Source of the DNA: Candidatus Dojkabacteria bacterium
GTDB taxonomy: Bacteria; Patescibacteriota; Dojkabacteria; J137
Direction: 5' to 3'
Assembly: GCA_025993875.1 (NCBI GenBank)
Contig: JAMQHH010000028.1
Location: forward strand, 1-44,728
DNA length: 44,728 nt
Part shown: positions 25,228-32,054 of the stretch, in pieces
Layout of the letters: every line of letters begins with the position of its first letter
How positions within the stretch are numbered: the first letter of the stretch is position 1
Notes under the pieces: model-generated
What the model saw: only the letters and a program-made list of their open reading frames with translations
Database searches by the model: none
Told to the model about the DNA's origin: nothing
Program-made: the position numbers and the translations under genes

Positions 25228-26292
25228 CTATCTAATGGCAATTTGTGTTAACCCATAAAGCTCTGGTACCTCCATAAATGAACCGTTATTGTACTCATAC
25301 CAGCTATCTTCTTCTCCTTTAAACAGAAATTTACTACTCTCGTTGCTGATACTGCAATAATATACCGGGTTTAGGTTAGGAATTGTTTGCAATGTAACAG
25401 TTTCTTCTTTACTCGAATTTATCAGCAAAAAAGTAATTGCATTGTTATTAACAGAAGATGCAATTAACCCTCCAAAACTGCCTTTGCAAAGTAAAGTCAC
25501 ATCGGAATATATTTCGGTCGATTCTTTTGATTTTAAATCTATCTGATAAATACCTGATTTGTTGTTATCTAAATTACCCGAAAGATAAAGTTTATCCTCC
25601 AAAAAGATTGCAATATCTCCAACAGATTTTACCTGTTCGGAAATGCTTGAATAATTTAGGCTCCAAACAACTCTGCCTGTTTCCGTTGCTAAATAAATTT
25701 TTTCAGTATCTTTGAAAACTAAGGAAAAATTTTCTTCAAAGGTGGTGCTCCCAATAAGTATAGATTCGGGTACGCGCAAAACTTTTATTATTTCTCCCCC
25801 TGAATTTAAGCTCAGTCTGTGAAGCCATTTATCCGATCCATCACCTTGTAAAAAAAATATTTTATTACTATCTTTCCACAAATATTTTGAAACTCCCTTG
25901 CCGGCAAAAGAATATGAAGTTAATTTTTGAAGCTCTCTTTTAGAGAGATTATACAAATAAAGATCGAATACTCCGCTCTCCTGCCCTAAAATAGAGAGAT
26001 AATTACTTTCTGGCGACCATTGGGGATTAATCCATTCCCTTTTTTCTAATGATGCTGTTAATTCCTCCCCGTTTTCTGTTTTTAAAATCAAGGTATCTTG
26101 GCTAGATGTTCCTGCGTAAGAGTAATAAGTTTCTTCACTTTCCGACAGGTTAATAGAGTTAACCGGATAGCTTGAAATGCCTTTGGTGCCACTTATAAGG
26201 ATAATAGTTTGAGATGATCCTAAAGCGTTAATAATAAAGACAATGCAAATAACAATACTTATAATAGCTGTAACTAAATATGTTTTCCTCAT
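25228..26292 (-). CDS. Membrane-anchored TolB-like beta-propeller protein
   Basis: N-terminal TM, NPQWSPES, FDLYLYNL, LQKLT repeats. Confidence 0.65.
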   Translation of the reverse strand: MRKTYLVTAIISIVICIVFIINALGSSQTIILISGTKGISSYPVNSINLSESEETYYSYAGTSSQDTLILKTENGEELTASLEKREWINPQWSPESNYLSILGQESGVFDLYLYNLSKRELQKLTSYSFAGKGVSKYLWKDSNKIFFLQGDGSDKWLHRLSLNSGGEIIKVLRVPESILIGSTTFEENFSLVFKDTEKIYLATETGRVVWSLNYSSISEQVKSVGDIAIFLEDKLYLSGNLDNNKSGIYQIDLKSKESTEIYSDVTLLCKGSFGGLIASSVNNNAITFLLINSSKEETVTLQTIPNLNPVYYCSISNESSKFLFKGEEDSWYEYNNGSFMEVPELYGLTQIAIR

Positions 26293-26886
26293 TTAAGGAT
26301 TAAAAATTAAATTAATAATATCAACTACCAGCCCAACATAGTTTAGTCGGTCCTCGCTCTCATTATCGGGCATAAAACCTTCAGTGTAAATACCTTTACT
26401 GTTACATATAAAAGAAGATGTAATAAGATTAGGTTTTGAACCTACGATAATAAATTTATGAATTAAAGCATCGCTTTGAATTTTAGTGCAGAATTCTATG
26501 ATAGAATTGTAAAAAAGCTCTTTTTCTACATAATCCGGTTTGGGAACAAAACTCGAGGCATTTTCTCCAATGTTTACCAAATAAAGCTTGGTAATAATTT
26601 TTTTTTCAATAAGCTCTTTTCCTCTATCTAACAGGTTTGTACTATCTCTAGCCAAAATAACAGCGGTGTTAAATTCGGGATTTAACTTATAAATTTCAGT
26701 AACAATTTTATTACTGTAAGATATCGAAACAGTTATAACTGCGACTAAAACGGTAAAAAAGAGTCCTGTTACAACGGGCAACATTATTTTTAAAATTCTT
26801 TTGGAGTTAAAAAATTTATCCCTTAAAATTAAACTTTGCGATCGCAATTTACGCAAAAAAATTTTAGGTTTGTTTCTAGTGTTCAT
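26293..26886 (-). CDS. Membrane-anchored hypothetical protein, possibly a degenerate SanA/DUF218 fold
   Basis: Basic N-terminus, TM helix, then NTAVILA...LLDRGKELI...LYLV loosely resembling DUF218. Confidence 0.5.
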   Translation of the reverse strand: MNTRNKPKIFLRKLRSQSLILRDKFFNSKRILKIMLPVVTGLFFTVLVAVITVSISYSNKIVTEIYKLNPEFNTAVILARDSTNLLDRGKELIEKKIITKLYLVNIGENASSFVPKPDYVEKELFYNSIIEFCTKIQSDALIHKFIIVGSKPNLITSSFICNSKGIYTEGFMPDNESEDRLNYVGLVVDIINLIFNP

Positions 26887-27533
26887 TTCTTGTAAATTCT
26901 ATAAATATTTTGTTGTGAATTTTTTCCGTCTGCTCTAAAAGTTTTAATTGGCTTTATGCCAAGTTCCTCCTCTATTTTTTCAATTTCTGCTATGTCTGTA
27001 AAATGGCAAAATCTTGTGGCTCCATTGTTACCAAATGAAAGGATATAATTATTATCACCAAGGGATTTAATAATGCCTTTATTTGCTGCTGGGTTTGTTT
27101 CGAACTGCCAATATGATATGGCAACTATCCCATTTTTGTTAACCAGCTCAAGACTTTTTTTGATAAGGTACTGTCTCTCCTTTTCGCTTTTTAAATGATG
27201 TGTAATCCCAAAAGCCACTATAAGGTTAAAATTCGGATTCTGAATTTCCCACTTTGAATTTAAATCTATCATTTTAAGTTCAAAAGATTTTGAAAGTGAA
27301 TAATATTTTTTGCAGATATTAAGTAATTGTTTCGAAAAATCAATGCCTAAATAGCTTTTTATAGGGAACCCCGCCTCTGATGCCCATAGCAAAAACCTGC
27401 CGTTTCCGCAGGCCAAATCTAAAATTTTTAGTTCTCCCAGACTATGAATGTAAGGTCTTAGCTCTTTCCAACCTTCCCAGCCGTACTTTCTGGTTTGAGA
27501 AAACTGGCGGGCAAATTTAGAGTAAAGATTCAT
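26883..27533 (-). CDS. Trm9/ALKBH8-like tRNA (carboxymethyluridine-34) methyltransferase
   Basis: LYSKFARQFSQTRKYGW, LDLACGNGRF, ITHHLKSEKER, AISYW, RFCH; head-to-head with elp3. Start ATG 27533. Confidence 0.7.
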   Translation of the reverse strand: MNLYSKFARQFSQTRKYGWEGWKELRPYIHSLGELKILDLACGNGRFLLWASEAGFPIKSYLGIDFSKQLLNICKKYYSLSKSFELKMIDLNSKWEIQNPNFNLIVAFGITHHLKSEKERQYLIKKSLELVNKNGIVAISYWQFETNPAANKGIIKSLGDNNYILSFGNNGATRFCHFTDIAEIEKIEEELGIKPIKTFRADGKNSQQNIYRIYKK

Positions 27534-27539
27534 ACTTAC

Positions 27540-27592
27540 ATTATACATAAGTAACCAGCTTTTACTAACAACATGCAAGGTCGTGCTAAAAT
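27540..27592. promoter_or_regulatory. Back-to-back -10 elements, each 6 nt from an ATG (divergent leaderless promoters)
   Basis: Minus strand: TATAAT (27545-27540)-N6-ATG 27533. Plus strand: TGCTAAAAT (27584-27592)-N6-ATG 27599. Confidence 0.6.
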
Positions 27593-27598
27593 CGATAT

Positions 27599-29353
27599 AT
27601 GCAGAATAAAAACAATATTGCTAAGCTGGTAGGGCTTTTAATAAAAAACCCCAATTTTACAAAAAAAGAGCTTGATGGTTATTTAAAGATCTTTACCCGA
27701 GATAACGGAGAGCTTTTTTCGAGAGACGAGATAATTTTAGAACTAAATAAAAATTCTGCCCAAACCAAACACATTGTTAACAGATTAAAGCTAAAGCCAA
27801 CCAGAACAATTTCCGGGGTTACTACAGTCACAGTGCTTACAATGCCCTTTGCATGCCCGGGAAAGTGCATATTTTGCCCCAACGATGTTCGAATGCCTAA
27901 AAGCTACATTGCAAGCGAGCCGGGTGCTCAGCGAGCGCTAATGTTTAGATTTGACCCTTTTACGCAGGTGTATAACAGACTTCTGGCATATAAAAATATA
28001 GGGCACCCAACAGATAAGGTGGAGCTTTTGGTTTTGGGAGGGACATGGTCCTATTATCCCGAAAAATATAGAGTCTGGTTTATTAAGGAGTGTTTTAGAG
28101 CGATGAATCTTTTTGGAACCGTAAAAAAGGATGGTATCCAGAATGAATATCTAAATGTAAGGGAGTATTTAAAGTCCGATTATAATAAGGCTCTAAGAGA
28201 TAAAGAAGGTGATAAACCCTATAACCAACTTATTCAAACAAAAAATTACAAGAAAGATTTTGAAGATAGGCTGGTATTAAAAGGTAACTGGAAAGATAGC
28301 CAGTTAAAAGATTTAAAATCCGATCTGGTAAATGAGCAAAATATTAACTCAAATGCTCAAACAAGATGTGTGGGACTAGTTTTAGAAACACGCCCCGATT
28401 GTATAAATAAATCGGAAGTTTACTCTTTACGAGAGCTTGGAGCAACAAAAATTCAGCTTGGGGTACAAACGCTGGACGATTCTATTAGCATTTTAAACAA
28501 AAGAGGCGAAACTAGATCAAACGTTGAATCTGCATTTTCTCTTTTGCGGGCTGCAGGCTTTAAAATTCATGCACATATAATGCCAAATCTTTATGGTGCC
28601 ACCCCCGAAAAGGATTTTGAGGTTTACAAGGAACTTTTCGATAACCCAGATTTTAAACCCGATGAGCTTAAAATTTACCCGACATCAATTATAAGGGATA
28701 CTGAAAATTACACACTTTTTAAAGAAGGAAAATATAAGCCGTACACTTTAATTCAGTTAAGTAATCTTCTGGCCGATTGTATTGAATATACTCCCGAGTA
28801 CTGTAGACTAACCAGAATTATAAGAGATATCCCTTCGCAAGAAATTGAAGGCGGAAACAAGGTAACGAATTTAAGGCAGGTAGTGGAAAAGAAATTAAAA
28901 CTGGAAAAAAGAGTAGATAAAAATATTAGAGCTAGAGAGATAAAAAATACAATGGTAACCGAAGAAGATTTGTTCTTAGACATTTTGGAATACCAGGCAG
29001 CCGGATCAAAAGAGTATTTTTTGCAGTTTATTACACAAAAAAGAAAAATTGCGGGGTTTTTAAGGCTTTCTATTCCAAAAGAATTGGTAAATCCAGTAAC
29101 ACCCGAACTGGACGGGTGCGCAATTATCAGGGAGGTGCATGTTTATGGGCCTAGTCTAGAGCTGCAAAGCAATTCCAGAGGCGAAGCACAGCATTTAGGC
29201 CTTGGAACAAGGCTAATCGATAAGGCTAAATCTATGGCCATCGAAAACGGATTTAACAAAATTGCGGTTATCTCCTCTATTGGGACTAGGGAGTATTACA
29301 AAAAGAGGGGGTTTGAGTTAAAGAGTTTGTATCAAATAGGGAAAACTACATAG
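27599..29353 (+). CDS. elp3: Elp3 tRNA uridine-34 carboxymethyltransferase (radical SAM + KAT)
   Basis: KPTRTISGV, CPGKCIFCP, PKSY..EPG, GGTW, ETRPD, PDELKIYP, RIIRDIP, IREVHVYG, QHLGLG, ISSIGTREYYKKRGF. Confidence 0.95.
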   Translation: MQNKNNIAKLVGLLIKNPNFTKKELDGYLKIFTRDNGELFSRDEIILELNKNSAQTKHIVNRLKLKPTRTISGVTTVTVLTMPFACPGKCIFCPNDVRMPKSYIASEPGAQRALMFRFDPFTQVYNRLLAYKNIGHPTDKVELLVLGGTWSYYPEKYRVWFIKECFRAMNLFGTVKKDGIQNEYLNVREYLKSDYNKALRDKEGDKPYNQLIQTKNYKKDFEDRLVLKGNWKDSQLKDLKSDLVNEQNINSNAQTRCVGLVLETRPDCINKSEVYSLRELGATKIQLGVQTLDDSISILNKRGETRSNVESAFSLLRAAGFKIHAHIMPNLYGATPEKDFEVYKELFDNPDFKPDELKIYPTSIIRDTENYTLFKEGKYKPYTLIQLSNLLADCIEYTPEYCRLTRIIRDIPSQEIEGGNKVTNLRQVVEKKLKLEKRVDKNIRAREIKNTMVTEEDLFLDILEYQAAGSKEYFLQFITQKRKIAGFLRLSIPKELVNPVTPELDGCAIIREVHVYGPSLELQSNSRGEAQHLGLGTRLIDKAKSMAIENGFNKIAVISSIGTREYYKKRGFELKSLYQIGKTT

Positions 29354-29422: not shown

Positions 29423-29827
29423 ATGGAAACGATGCAGTTCGGATATCATCTTATGGTTGACATATACAATGCTAGTTCAGAGATTCTTTCTTCTATGGAG
29501 AGGTTATATGATTTGCTGGTTGAGTTGCCTAAAATAGTCAGTATGAATGTGCTAATCCCACCACTTTTAGTTAGGGCAGAAAGCAATGAAAAAAGGGGAG
29601 GCAAGGATCCTGGAGGAATAACGGGATTTACACTTATAGCAGAGTCTCATATCAGCTTACACTCCTTCCCTAAAAGAAGATTTTGCAGTATGGATATTTA
29701 TTCTTGCAAAGAATTTAACAAAGATATAGCTATTAGGTACATTTGCAGTTGCCTTGAGACAGAAGATATTGAAATAAACTTTACCAGCCGCGGAAATAGG
29801 TACCCAGCAAGCAATCTTGTTAAATAA
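29423..29827 (+). CDS. speD: Pyruvoyl-dependent decarboxylase proenzyme, AdoMetDC (SpeD/SpeH) family
   Basis: GYHLMVD, GITG..LIAESHISLHSFP (ES autocleavage site), DIYSC. Confidence 0.85.
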   Translation: METMQFGYHLMVDIYNASSEILSSMERLYDLLVELPKIVSMNVLIPPLLVRAESNEKRGGKDPGGITGFTLIAESHISLHSFPKRRFCSMDIYSCKEFNKDIAIRYICSCLETEDIEINFTSRGNRYPASNLVK

Positions 29828-30898
29828 TTAAGACGGCTGTTGGTGTAAAATACAATGGATATTTCCCCCGCCAATCAGTATTTCTTTTGAATAGATTCCG
29901 ATTACTTTATAGCCTTGCATTATCTCTTCAAGCTGTTTGATTGCTATATTATCAAATTTATCATTAAAAGTTGGGACAATTACAAATTTATTGCCAATAT
30001 ATAAATTAACATACGATGCTGGCAGACGTTGTTTATATTTTCTTTCTAAAGTGCCGGAAACCTTTTTTATTCCGTTTGCTTCTTTAGCTGTGATAAAGAT
30101 TGGATCGGGTTGATGCAATTTATGGATCTTTAGTTTTTTCCCTTTTGCATCTACTGCATTGCTTAGAATGTTATAGGCAGAAAGTGAGACTTGATATTGA
30201 GGATCTTCCTTATCTTCGGTCCAATTGATTATAACCTCCCCATTTTTTATGAACTGACATATGTTATCTACATGACCTAATGTTTCATCGAATCTTAATC
30301 CTAACTCCAGCCAAATAATTTGACTTACACCTAGGGCTTTTTTTAAAATTTCTTCTGCTTTCTCGATAGTTAGCTCTGGATTTCTTCTTGCATCCAAAAC
30401 GCTTTCCTTTGTAGTAATAAGTGTCCCATCTCCATCTGTAGTTACGGCTCCTCCCTCAAGAATAATTTCATACTTTTTTACAGGAATCTTTTGAGAACAA
30501 GCTATGGCGTAACCTAGGCTGTTATCATCACTCCAATCTTTATAGCATTCTTCGCCCCATGCGTTAAAATCCCACTTTACACATTGTAACTCTCCGTTAA
30601 CTTTTATATACTCTGGGCTTGTATCTCTAATCCAAATATCATTATATCTTAAAGGAATAATTTCAATATTTTCTTGACCAGCAAAAATTTTTGTAACTTT
30701 TGTGAGACTCTCTGTATCAACGCCCAAATAAACTTTCTCGAATTTAGAAATGATTCTAATAATATTAACTATTGTAGATTGGATAGGCACTGCATTATTA
30801 CGCCACACATCTGCCCTTGTAGGCCAGAGTACCCATGTTGCAGCATGGTCAAAAAATTCTGCTAAAAATTGTTTGTTTTGTTTTATTTTAATCCCCAA
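29828..30898 (-). CDS. aguA: Agmatine deiminase
   Basis: AEF..HAATWVLWP, NDIWIRD, FNAWG, LEGG...DGDGT, RRNP, TLGHVDN, PASYVN, GGGNIHCILHQQP. No ATG; TTG 30898 preferred over TTG 30928. Confidence 0.92.
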   Translation of the reverse strand: MGIKIKQNKQFLAEFFDHAATWVLWPTRADVWRNNAVPIQSTIVNIIRIISKFEKVYLGVDTESLTKVTKIFAGQENIEIIPLRYNDIWIRDTSPEYIKVNGELQCVKWDFNAWGEECYKDWSDDNSLGYAIACSQKIPVKKYEIILEGGAVTTDGDGTLITTKESVLDARRNPELTIEKAEEILKKALGVSQIIWLELGLRFDETLGHVDNICQFIKNGEVIINWTEDKEDPQYQVSLSAYNILSNAVDAKGKKLKIHKLHQPDPIFITAKEANGIKKVSGTLERKYKQRLPASYVNLYIGNKFVIVPTFNDKFDNIAIKQLEEIMQGYKVIGIYSKEILIGGGNIHCILHQQPS

Positions 30899-31029
30899 TA
30901 TTAGGCAACTATTATATAGAAATCCCAAGTATTATACCAGCATCTTGCCATACCCAAAAGCAACCCGTACCGGATGATTATCAAGTGCATTTAATGTTTC
31001 ACATAGTAAGTAGCCCGAATATTGGGAAT
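30891..31029 (-). repeat. Long imperfect inverted repeat / rod-like RNA structure
   Basis: Minus-strand ATTCCCAATATTCGGGCTACT pairs with AGTTGCCTAATATTGGGGAT, extending via TATGT-GAAA/TTTC-T-ATATA; G-U pairs favour the minus strand. Confidence 0.6.
30931..30939 (-). promoter_or_regulatory. Extended -10 element upstream of aguA
   Basis: TGGTATAAT on the minus strand, 32 nt before TTG 30898. Confidence 0.5.
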
Positions 31030-31982: not shown

Positions 31983-32054
31983 TGGACCCAGCCGGAGTCG
32001 AACCGGCCTCTTACGAATGCGAATCGTATGCTCTACCAAATAAGCTATAGGCCC
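31983..32054 (-). tRNA. tRNA-Ala(CGC), CCA not encoded
   Basis: GGGCCTA/TGGGTCC acceptor stem with G3:U70, D-arm GCTT/GAGC, anticodon arm TACGA-TTCGCAT-TCGTA, T-arm GCCGG-TTCGACT-CCGGC, discriminator A. Confidence 0.95.

Follow-up and report, generated by a model that had tools for sequence, protein, structure and literature searches.

The window analysed here, a stretch of 44,728 nucleotides (nt) from a Candidatus Dojkabacteria genome (contig JAMQHH010000028.1), carries a gene for Elp3 beside a divergently transcribed gene for a methyltransferase that depends on S-adenosylmethionine (SAM). It is established for Elp3 in each of the three domains of life that the enzyme makes 5-carboxymethyluridine (cm5U) at the wobble position, U34, of transfer RNA (tRNA). 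Profile comparison, conservation of function-bearing residues, gene linkage and mutual exclusion with MnmG suggest that the neighbouring protein is probably a bacterial enzyme of the Trm9 type, mostly found without Trm112, which would methyl-esterify the cm5U34 made by Elp3 to 5-methoxycarbonylmethyluridine, with or without a 2-thio group (mcm5(s2)U34). We lean only slightly towards the wider proposition that the Elp3-bearing bacteria have replaced MnmE/MnmG (MnmEG) by a module of Elp3 and a Trm9-like enzyme, make mcm5s2U together with MnmA, and possess a methyltransferase that has escaped its dependence on Trm112.

The window is contig C25 of an assembly (G000) of 930 kb in 40 contigs, which is 96% complete and has a G+C content of about 33%. 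The preliminary description of this locus had reported a complete Elp3 gene 65 nt from a divergent methyltransferase gene, and the coordinates of the open reading frames (ORFs) and of the gap between them bear this out:

26883..27533, minus strand: Trm9-like class I SAM-dependent methyltransferase, 216 amino acids (aa) from the ATG at 27533, stop codon included in the coordinates
27534..27598, no strand: divergent intergenic region of 65 nt with two back-to-back extended -10-like boxes
27599..29353, plus strand: Elp3 with radical-SAM and GNAT (KAT) domains, predicted tRNA U34 carboxymethyl synthase, 584 aa, ATG start

Homology of the methyltransferase to Trm9

Two profiles of the methyltransferase family were compared with the solved structures, A1 from an alignment of 31 relatives of the window protein and A2 from an alignment of 66 sequences from many phyla. 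Both ranked chain 5cm2_Z first, which is the Trm9 of the Trm9-Trm112 crystal from Yarrowia lipolytica. The A1 match scored 54.1 bits (E 1.1e-13) over profile positions 27-221, and the A2 match 63 bits (E 2.3e-16) over profile positions 13-214 and residues 3-181 of the 205 in the chain. Other methyltransferases align to A1 only across the SAM-binding core, and the runner-up of A2 reaches its 62 bits only as the sum of two domains. A profile of a second bacterial subfamily, A4, described below, likewise placed 5cm2_Z first with 78.4 bits. Together, the three profiles support the assignment of the window family as Trm9-like, in agreement with the earlier proposal that the protein matches Trm9/ALKBH8 signatures. 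Since the lead of 5cm2_Z over the runner-up was small in each case (54 vs 48 bits for A1, 63 vs 62 for A2 and 78 vs 74 for A4), the function-bearing residues were examined as well.

The window methyltransferase is the sole member of its family in the genome (210 bits). Among the 120 relatives listed, eight carry the name TRM9 from the JGI pipeline, and the NCBI name is generic. A search for longer or fused forms with an RRM or AlkB domain found none, a negative result of little weight. A search of DNA with the degenerate pattern D-x-G-C-G-N-G-K yielded three more bacterial members and no archaeal Trm9, the archaeal matches being without the HH motif. A search of the ESM Atlas with the methyltransferase returned generic methyltransferase clusters only. 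All members of one near cluster there, by language-model features, are proteins of giant viruses (Nucleocytoviricota) that carry an annotation as ubiquinone/menaquinone methyltransferases.

Conservation of residues required for Trm9 activity

All five Trm9/ALKBH8 motifs named in the preliminary description occur in the methyltransferase in the proposed order: Y4..F11-S-Q-T-R15...W19, D39-L-A-C-G-N-G-R46, H112-H113, W142 within ISYW, and R174-F-C-H177. HMMER alignments show the matching motifs in 5cm2_Z. The class I SAM-methyltransferase core is present, and the SAM loop D39-x-x-C-G-N-G-R46 is invariant in A2. Mutational data on the yeast enzyme allow a closer comparison. According to the available text of Letoquart 2015 (PMC4678810), alanine mutants of yeast Trm9 at R29, D72, H116, W145, W168, R241, Y243 and N271 confer zymocin resistance and are inactive or reduced in activity by at least 10-fold, with about 10% of activity left in the Y243 mutant.

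These residues were mapped onto the window protein through the HMMER alignments to 5cm2_Z. R29 corresponds to R15, D72 to D65, H116 to H113, W145 to W142, W168 to position 167, R241 to R174 and Y243 to C176. N271 probably corresponds to N209; this assignment, made by profile-profile alignment of A2 and A4, is less certain because the column lies beyond the aligned part of the 5cm2_Z chain. In A2, R15, H113, W142 and R174 are each conserved in 66 of 66 sequences, D65 in 65 of 66 and N209 in 58 of 66, and position 167 is occupied by W in 59 sequences and by F in 7. Y4, at the position of yeast Y18, is also conserved in 66 of 66. The family therefore keeps seven of the eight function-critical residues of Trm9, the eighth being the equivalent of Y243.

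Conservation of the Elp3-methyltransferase pair

Relatives of the methyltransferase gene were found in 306 stretches among species-representative genomes, and the best 80 loci were examined. These span Patescibacteria, Chloroflexota, Acidobacteriota, Myxococcota, Dependentiae, Eggerthellaceae, Spirochaetota and Fermentibacterota. Elp3 is encoded in the flank of 58 of the 80 loci, and in 57 of them, covering at least seven phyla, it lies upstream and divergent, the arrangement seen in the window. Of the 22 loci that lack Elp3, five have upstream sequence shorter than 900 nt.

Both genes were then counted in an even sample of 201 genomes from the phylum of the window, with Elp3 scored over its family cut-off and the methyltransferase at E <= 1e-20. 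Elp3 is present in 85 of these genomes and the methyltransferase in 67, distributed over 33 family codes, and 65 of the 67 also have Elp3. Within 5 kb of each other lie 53 of the 65 co-occurring pairs; every one of the 53 is divergent, and in 47 the two genes are no more than 230 nt apart. A flank scan of 20 genomes that had appeared to possess Elp3 only revealed two more divergent pairs. Related genomes are not independent, and Fisher values for the co-occurrence overstate the case. Like all counts given here, these come from sampled genomes, a good part of which are metagenome bins.

A similar picture was obtained in a sample of 151 Chloroflexota genomes, where Elp3 was found in 30 and an A1-type methyltransferase in 17, all of them within those 30. 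By coordinates, 14 of these 17 methyltransferase genes are divergent neighbours of Elp3. The placement of the family downstream of Elp3/Elongator is a matter of genomic linkage only (57/80 loci, 65/67 genomes, 53/53 neighbouring pairs and 17/17 in Chloroflexota). The expected conservation of the elp3 neighbourhood was thus confirmed, in the 57 loci and in the uniformly divergent neighbouring pairs. The initial framing around a single locus proved too narrow: the pair belongs to a widespread bacterial system with two methyltransferase subfamilies, and some lineages of the phylum have Elp3 alone.

Mutual exclusion with MnmG and absence of Trm112

In the window genome, no MnmE was found over the cut-off, the best match being a GTPase at 21.7 bits, and no MnmG was found, while MnmA was detected with 407 bits. 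Across the samples, MnmG is missing from all 120 Elp3-bearing genomes (85 from the phylum, 30 from Chloroflexota and 5 others). The phylum sample contains MnmG in 11 of 201 genomes, that is, in 0 of 85 Elp3-positive vs 11 of 116 Elp3-negative ones. In Chloroflexota it occurs in 71 of 151 genomes at E <= 1e-100 (68 over the cut-off; the 71 include two unpublished genomes, G243 and G350), in 0 of 30 Elp3-positive vs 71 of 121 Elp3-negative ones. The five further carriers are a member of the Anaerolineae, the cultured Ellagibacter isourolithinifaciens DSM 104140, a TM6 genome, a deltaproteobacterial metagenome-assembled genome (MAG) and a Thermoanaerobaculia MAG; none of the five has MnmG and all five have MnmA. 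The anticorrelation of elp3 with mnmG suggested at the outset hence takes the form of mutual exclusion in the sampled genomes. Likewise, the presence of MnmA fits the (s2) part of the mcm5(s2)U module that had been proposed.

The obligate partner of Trm9 is lacking in the window genome, where Trm112 (PF03966) was not matched. At the curated cut-off, no Trm112 was detected in 65 of the 67 methyltransferase-bearing genomes of the phylum. Overall, PF03966 scored over the cut-off in 7 of the 201 phylum genomes, only two of which carry the methyltransferase, and in two of the five carriers from other phyla. A control search for PF03966 was positive in 7 of 14 reference genomes. These results are consistent with the suggestion, made originally for this locus, that the enzyme may be independent of Trm112, and they extend it to most carriers.

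With aragorn, 44 tRNA genes were identified in the window genome. Candidate U34 substrates among them, belonging to classes in which xm5U is found in other organisms, are tRNA-Lys (UUU), tRNA-Gln (UUG), tRNA-Arg (UCU), tRNA-Gly (UCC) and tRNA-Leu (UAA). Genes for tRNA-Glu (UUC) and tRNA-Ala (UGC) were not found by aragorn in this 96% complete assembly and may be unassembled. The list also includes a tRNA-Ile with the anticodon UAU and a tRNA-Arg with UCG.

Elp3 of the window

Elp3 unites all the hallmarks of its family in one chain. It matches NCBIfam TIGR01211 with 477.1 bits (cut-off 350) and contains the Pfam domains Radical_SAM, Radical_SAM_C and GNAT. The radical-SAM cysteines C86, C90 and C93 and the acetyl-CoA motif Q531-H532-x-G534-x-G536 are invariant among 39 relatives. 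Among solved structures, the Elp3 of Dehalococcoides (5l7j, E 1.2e-96) is the closest relative and aligns in two stretches (residues 66-170 and 243-578); together, 5l7j, 6iaz and the eukaryotic Elp3 chains match at E 1e-78 to 1e-96. Relative to 5l7j, the window protein is longer by an N-terminal extension (residues 1-65) and by an insert of 73 aa (171-243). The extension is lysine-rich, with 13 lysine and arginine residues in the first 68 positions, and the insert is charged. In archaeal and eukaryotic Elp3, the literature ties the N-terminal extension to tRNA binding.

If this Elp3 did not make cm5U34 and, for example, acetylated something else, the pair would serve another process. The available text of a 2020 review (PMC7663514) states that the sole bacterial Elp3 tested in vitro, that of Dehalococcoides, is very weakly active, puts bacterial Elp3 in one clade only, and notes that direct evidence for cm5U-type uridines (xcm5U) in bacteria is lacking. 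We nevertheless consider such an explanation highly improbable, given a family score far above the cut-off, catalytic motifs that are all invariant, and the complete exclusion of MnmG in 120 genomes, as would be expected if the xm5U34 pathway had been replaced. Moreover, tRNA-triggered acetyl-CoA hydrolysis is described for bacterial, archaeal and eukaryotic Elp3 in the accessible part of Lin 2019 (PMC6367351). A 2026 paper (PMC13315578), in the portion at hand, mentions Elp3 in 'numerous bacteria' and gives no detail.

A second subfamily beside short Elp3 proteins

The other 13 Elp3-bearing Chloroflexota, all with small genomes, encode short Elp3 frames of 458-518 aa. That these short, Dehalococcoides-like Elp3 proteins are partnerless was considered and ruled out: with a lower threshold and a scan of the flanks, a divergent gene of about 220 aa (A4) was found directly upstream of Elp3 in 12 of the 13, matching the family at 47-79 bits. 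The motifs of the family recur in A4, where they resemble Trm9 still more closely, and the alignment of A4 with A2 has an hhalign probability of 99.6. No mention of an A4-type neighbour of the short Dehalococcoides-kind Elp3 was found in the literature searched, although the 2016 structure paper may still contain one.

Among 1.8 billion library proteins, those closest to A4 include some from DPANN archaea (A5). A5 aligns with the window family at an hhalign probability of 99.9 over 202 columns, and no Elp3 was found nearby in the three archaeal A5 loci examined. The two bacterial methyltransferase subfamilies run in parallel with two Elp3 clades, and one of them has relatives among DPANN archaea, a hint at joint transfer of the Elp3-methyltransferase pair between domains.

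Opposing evidence and alternative functions

Besides the narrow lead of 5cm2_Z, several observations weigh against a Trm9-type function. In the domain libraries, the methyltransferase matched only Methyltransf_25, 12, 23, 31 and 11 of Pfam, all generic, and only generic entries of NCBIfam, with weak UbiG/UbiE-like matches. When searched as a single sequence, it ranked 5cm2_Z 15th (E 0.062), and its C-terminal 77 residues alone matched no solved chain. Against the solved structures, A5 placed Trm9 only fourth. Elsewhere in the genome, a LOG-fused methyltransferase also has the HH and R-F-Y-H motifs, without both tryptophans and the N-terminal arginine; because it has both, HH and R-F-Y-H alone are not diagnostic. 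This second gene (contig C23:9704-10984, minus strand) encodes the methyltransferase behind a LOG/lysine-decarboxylase-like domain, and its product matches A5 (65.8 bits) better than the window protein does.

The linkage is also incomplete. In 17 of the 80 loci, the methyltransferase gene has no Elp3 within about 4-6 kb, and 18 of the 85 Elp3-bearing genomes of the phylum have no such methyltransferase near Elp3; genome-wide searches of five of these 18 found none anywhere. Since Elp3-bearing genomes without the methyltransferase exist, Elp3 does not require it. Seven genomes of family code f2, which belongs to the class of the window genome (G017, G045, G070, G094, G157, G174 and G191), encode an Elp3 matching that of the window with about 480 bits (BLASTP). 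No Trm9-like gene lies near Elp3 in these seven, and none was found anywhere in the three that were checked genome-wide. In the Elp3 tree, one clade of 46 rows consists of 39 with an A2-type partner and 7 nested rows without. This looks like secondary loss of the methyltransferase in the seven f2 genomes, which would leave cm5U or 5-carbamoylmethyluridine (ncm5U) as the end product.

The domain-library matches, and the fact that divergent neighbours are common, would fit a generic small-molecule or protein methyltransferase whose only tie to Elp3 is a common promoter region and which plays no part in tRNA modification. A generic role is made very unlikely by the co-occurrence, with head-to-head pairing over at least seven phyla and Elp3 in 65 of the 67 carriers of the phylum. 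In addition, a second subfamily occupies the same position beside another Elp3 clade, and the conserved residues outside the SAM core match Trm9.

Further points on the opposing side concern the reaction itself. The equivalent of yeast Y243 is not kept: in A2, the column holds C in 55 sequences, V in 8, A in 2 and S in 1, never Y, and in A1 it holds C in 16, F in 6, A in 5, V in 3 and Y in 1. In the literature searched, no report of mcm5U from a bacterium was found. The methyltransferase might act in the Elp3 pathway with a different chemistry, on another intermediate or atom, on a subset of tRNAs, or towards a new xcm5U derivative. What linkage and the exclusion of MnmG prove is that the protein is functionally tied to Elp3, and not which reaction it catalyses; one active-site tyrosine of Trm9 is replaced by Cys, Val or Ala throughout, and Trm112 is absent. 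Even in yeast, the true methyl acceptor is still debated, according to the available text of a review (PMC5699542). What argues against a different chemistry is the retention of seven of the eight Trm9 activity residues, including the proposed carboxylate pair R15/H113 and the proposed uracil-reading Asn. We therefore regard it as unlikely, albeit clearly less so than a generic methyltransferase, and retain methyl esterification of cm5U34 as the preferred reading.

Proposed pathway

Judging from its family membership, Elp3 would add a carboxymethyl group to C5 of U34 by radical SAM chemistry and acetyl-CoA, yielding cm5U. The methyltransferase, as a carboxyl O-methyltransferase of the Trm9 type, would then esterify this cm5U34 with SAM, giving mcm5U34. 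Analogy to Trm9 suggests roles for several residues: R15 and H113 may hold the carboxylate in place, W142 and the aromatic side chain of position 167 may stack on bases, R174 may contact the carboxyl group and N209 may read the uracil. In the window genome, the enzyme presumably works without Trm112.

On the two-codon-box tRNAs, namely tRNA-Lys (UUU), tRNA-Gln (UUG) and tRNA-Glu (UUC; gene not found in the assembly), MnmA would add the 2-thio group, and the predicted product is mcm5s2U. Such a hybrid pathway would combine an archaeal/eukaryotic C5 branch with a bacterial S2 branch, and Elp3, the methyltransferase and MnmA would take the place of the MnmE/MnmG route, which is missing. The full-text literature searched yielded no account of a Trm9-like protein that partners Elp3 in bacteria; the 2016 Dehalococcoides structure paper and supplements may still mention one.

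Intergenic region and neighbouring genes

The methyltransferase ORF stays open upstream of ATG 27533 as far as TTG 27578 (26883..27578, minus strand, 231 aa). Its start may be the in-frame ATG 27533, ATG 27548 or TTG 27578; the family profile alignment reaches 7 residues upstream of ATG 27533. On the minus strand, a TG at 27547-27546 is followed by TATAAT at 27545-27540 as a -10-like box for the methyltransferase, as read from the sequence. The corresponding box for Elp3 on the plus strand, which also appeared in the promoter scan, comprises TG at 27584-27585 and TAAAAT at 27587-27592. Both TG-extended boxes end 6 nt before the respective ATG, leaving no space for a Shine-Dalgarno sequence. 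This arrangement suggests two back-to-back promoters giving leaderless mRNAs for Elp3 and the methyltransferase, which may be co-regulated. In the promoter scan, promoter-like sites were no commoner than in shuffled sequence.

On the far side of the methyltransferase gene, its stop and the start of an ORF of 197 aa (26293-26886, minus strand) overlap by 4 nt; this ORF is followed by a 354-aa ORF (25228-26292, minus strand); neither has a Pfam or NCBIfam match. The methyltransferase may head a small operon, because a homologue of the 354-aa ORF is also found downstream of the methyltransferase in the three nearest loci (L002-L004). Directly downstream of Elp3, positions 29423-30928 encode a SAM decarboxylase (AdoMet_dc, 79 bits) and a convergent agmatine deiminase (TIGR03380, 400 bits). 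Polyamine genes thus adjoin two SAM-using enzymes. A tRNA-Ala gene with the anticodon CGC lies inside the window at 31983-32054 on the minus strand.

Significance and comparison with known systems

Wobble-uridine chemistry is taught as a domain marker, with 5-(carboxy)methylaminomethyluridine ((c)mnm5U) in Bacteria vs mcm5U in Eukarya. If the proposed pathway is true, this split fails for a sizeable part of bacterial diversity. Among the sampled genomes, about two in five of the phylum of the window (85/201) and a fifth of Chloroflexota carry Elp3, and it is also found in lineages of Acidobacteriota, Myxococcota, Dependentiae and the human-gut Eggerthellaceae. The 2020 review (PMC7663514), in its available text, regards bacterial Elp3 as a peculiarity of a single dehalogenating clade, for which evidence of the products in vivo is lacking. 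The present analysis turns this into a testable statement: bacteria with the two-gene module, widespread and in mutual exclusion with MnmG, are expected to make mcm5(s2)U. Cultured carriers exist in Ellagibacter isourolithinifaciens DSM 104140 for the window family and possibly in Dehalococcoides for the sister subfamily A4. The former has the pair and MnmA, and neither MnmG nor Trm112 was matched in it. A Trm9 active without Trm112 would, if confirmed, help to explain the role of Trm112 for the eukaryotic enzyme and provide a simple recombinant tool for making mcm5U-tRNA. The pathway also bears on the minimal translation apparatus of ultra-small bacteria and on anticodon nucleases that recognise mcm5s2U.

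The textbook eukaryotic route runs from Elp3 to Trm9-Trm112, and in it Trm112 is obligatory. With Trm9-Trm112 of yeast and Yarrowia (5CM2) and the methyltransferase domain of ALKBH8, the window enzyme shares membership of the class I SAM methyltransferases, the N-terminal aromatic...R motif, the HH after strand 4, the W after strand 5 and a putative C-terminal hairpin with an aromatic residue and R-Y-x-H. It would also share their action downstream of Elp3, here indicated by genomic linkage. In contrast to them, its family occurs without Trm112 (in the window genome and in 65 of 67 carriers), has Cys at the equivalent of Y243, and yielded no RRM or AlkB fusion; its gene is bacterial and chromosomally paired with elp3.

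In archaea, the available texts of Grosjean 2008 (PMC2584109) and van Tran 2018 (PMC6144793) show or predict this route for some species and report an Elp3-Trm9 gene cluster in Sulfolobus solfataricus, with mcm5-type wobble uridines as the prediction. The Sulfolobus cluster resembles the window locus in having a stand-alone Elp3, without Elp1, 2, 4, 5 or 6, beside a Trm9-like gene. As far as these texts go, archaeal Trm9 differs in that the Haloferax enzyme works with Trm112, and thiolation there is of the Ncs6/Tuc1 type, whereas MnmA is predicted here. With the Elp3 of Dehalococcoides mccartyi (5L7J), its closest solved match, the window Elp3 shares the enzyme family; it differs by its 65-aa extension and 73-aa insert and falls into another Elp3 clade.

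The MnmE/MnmG (plus MnmC) route to (c)mnm5(s2)U34 has the same target position, tRNA set and partner thiolase, MnmA, as the pathway proposed here. Its enzymes and chemistry are unrelated, and MnmG never accompanied Elp3 in the 120 Elp3-bearing genomes. Taken together, the reaction logic is already known from these systems, and the differences lie in the bacterial host, the missing Trm112, the one changed active-site residue and the MnmA partner.

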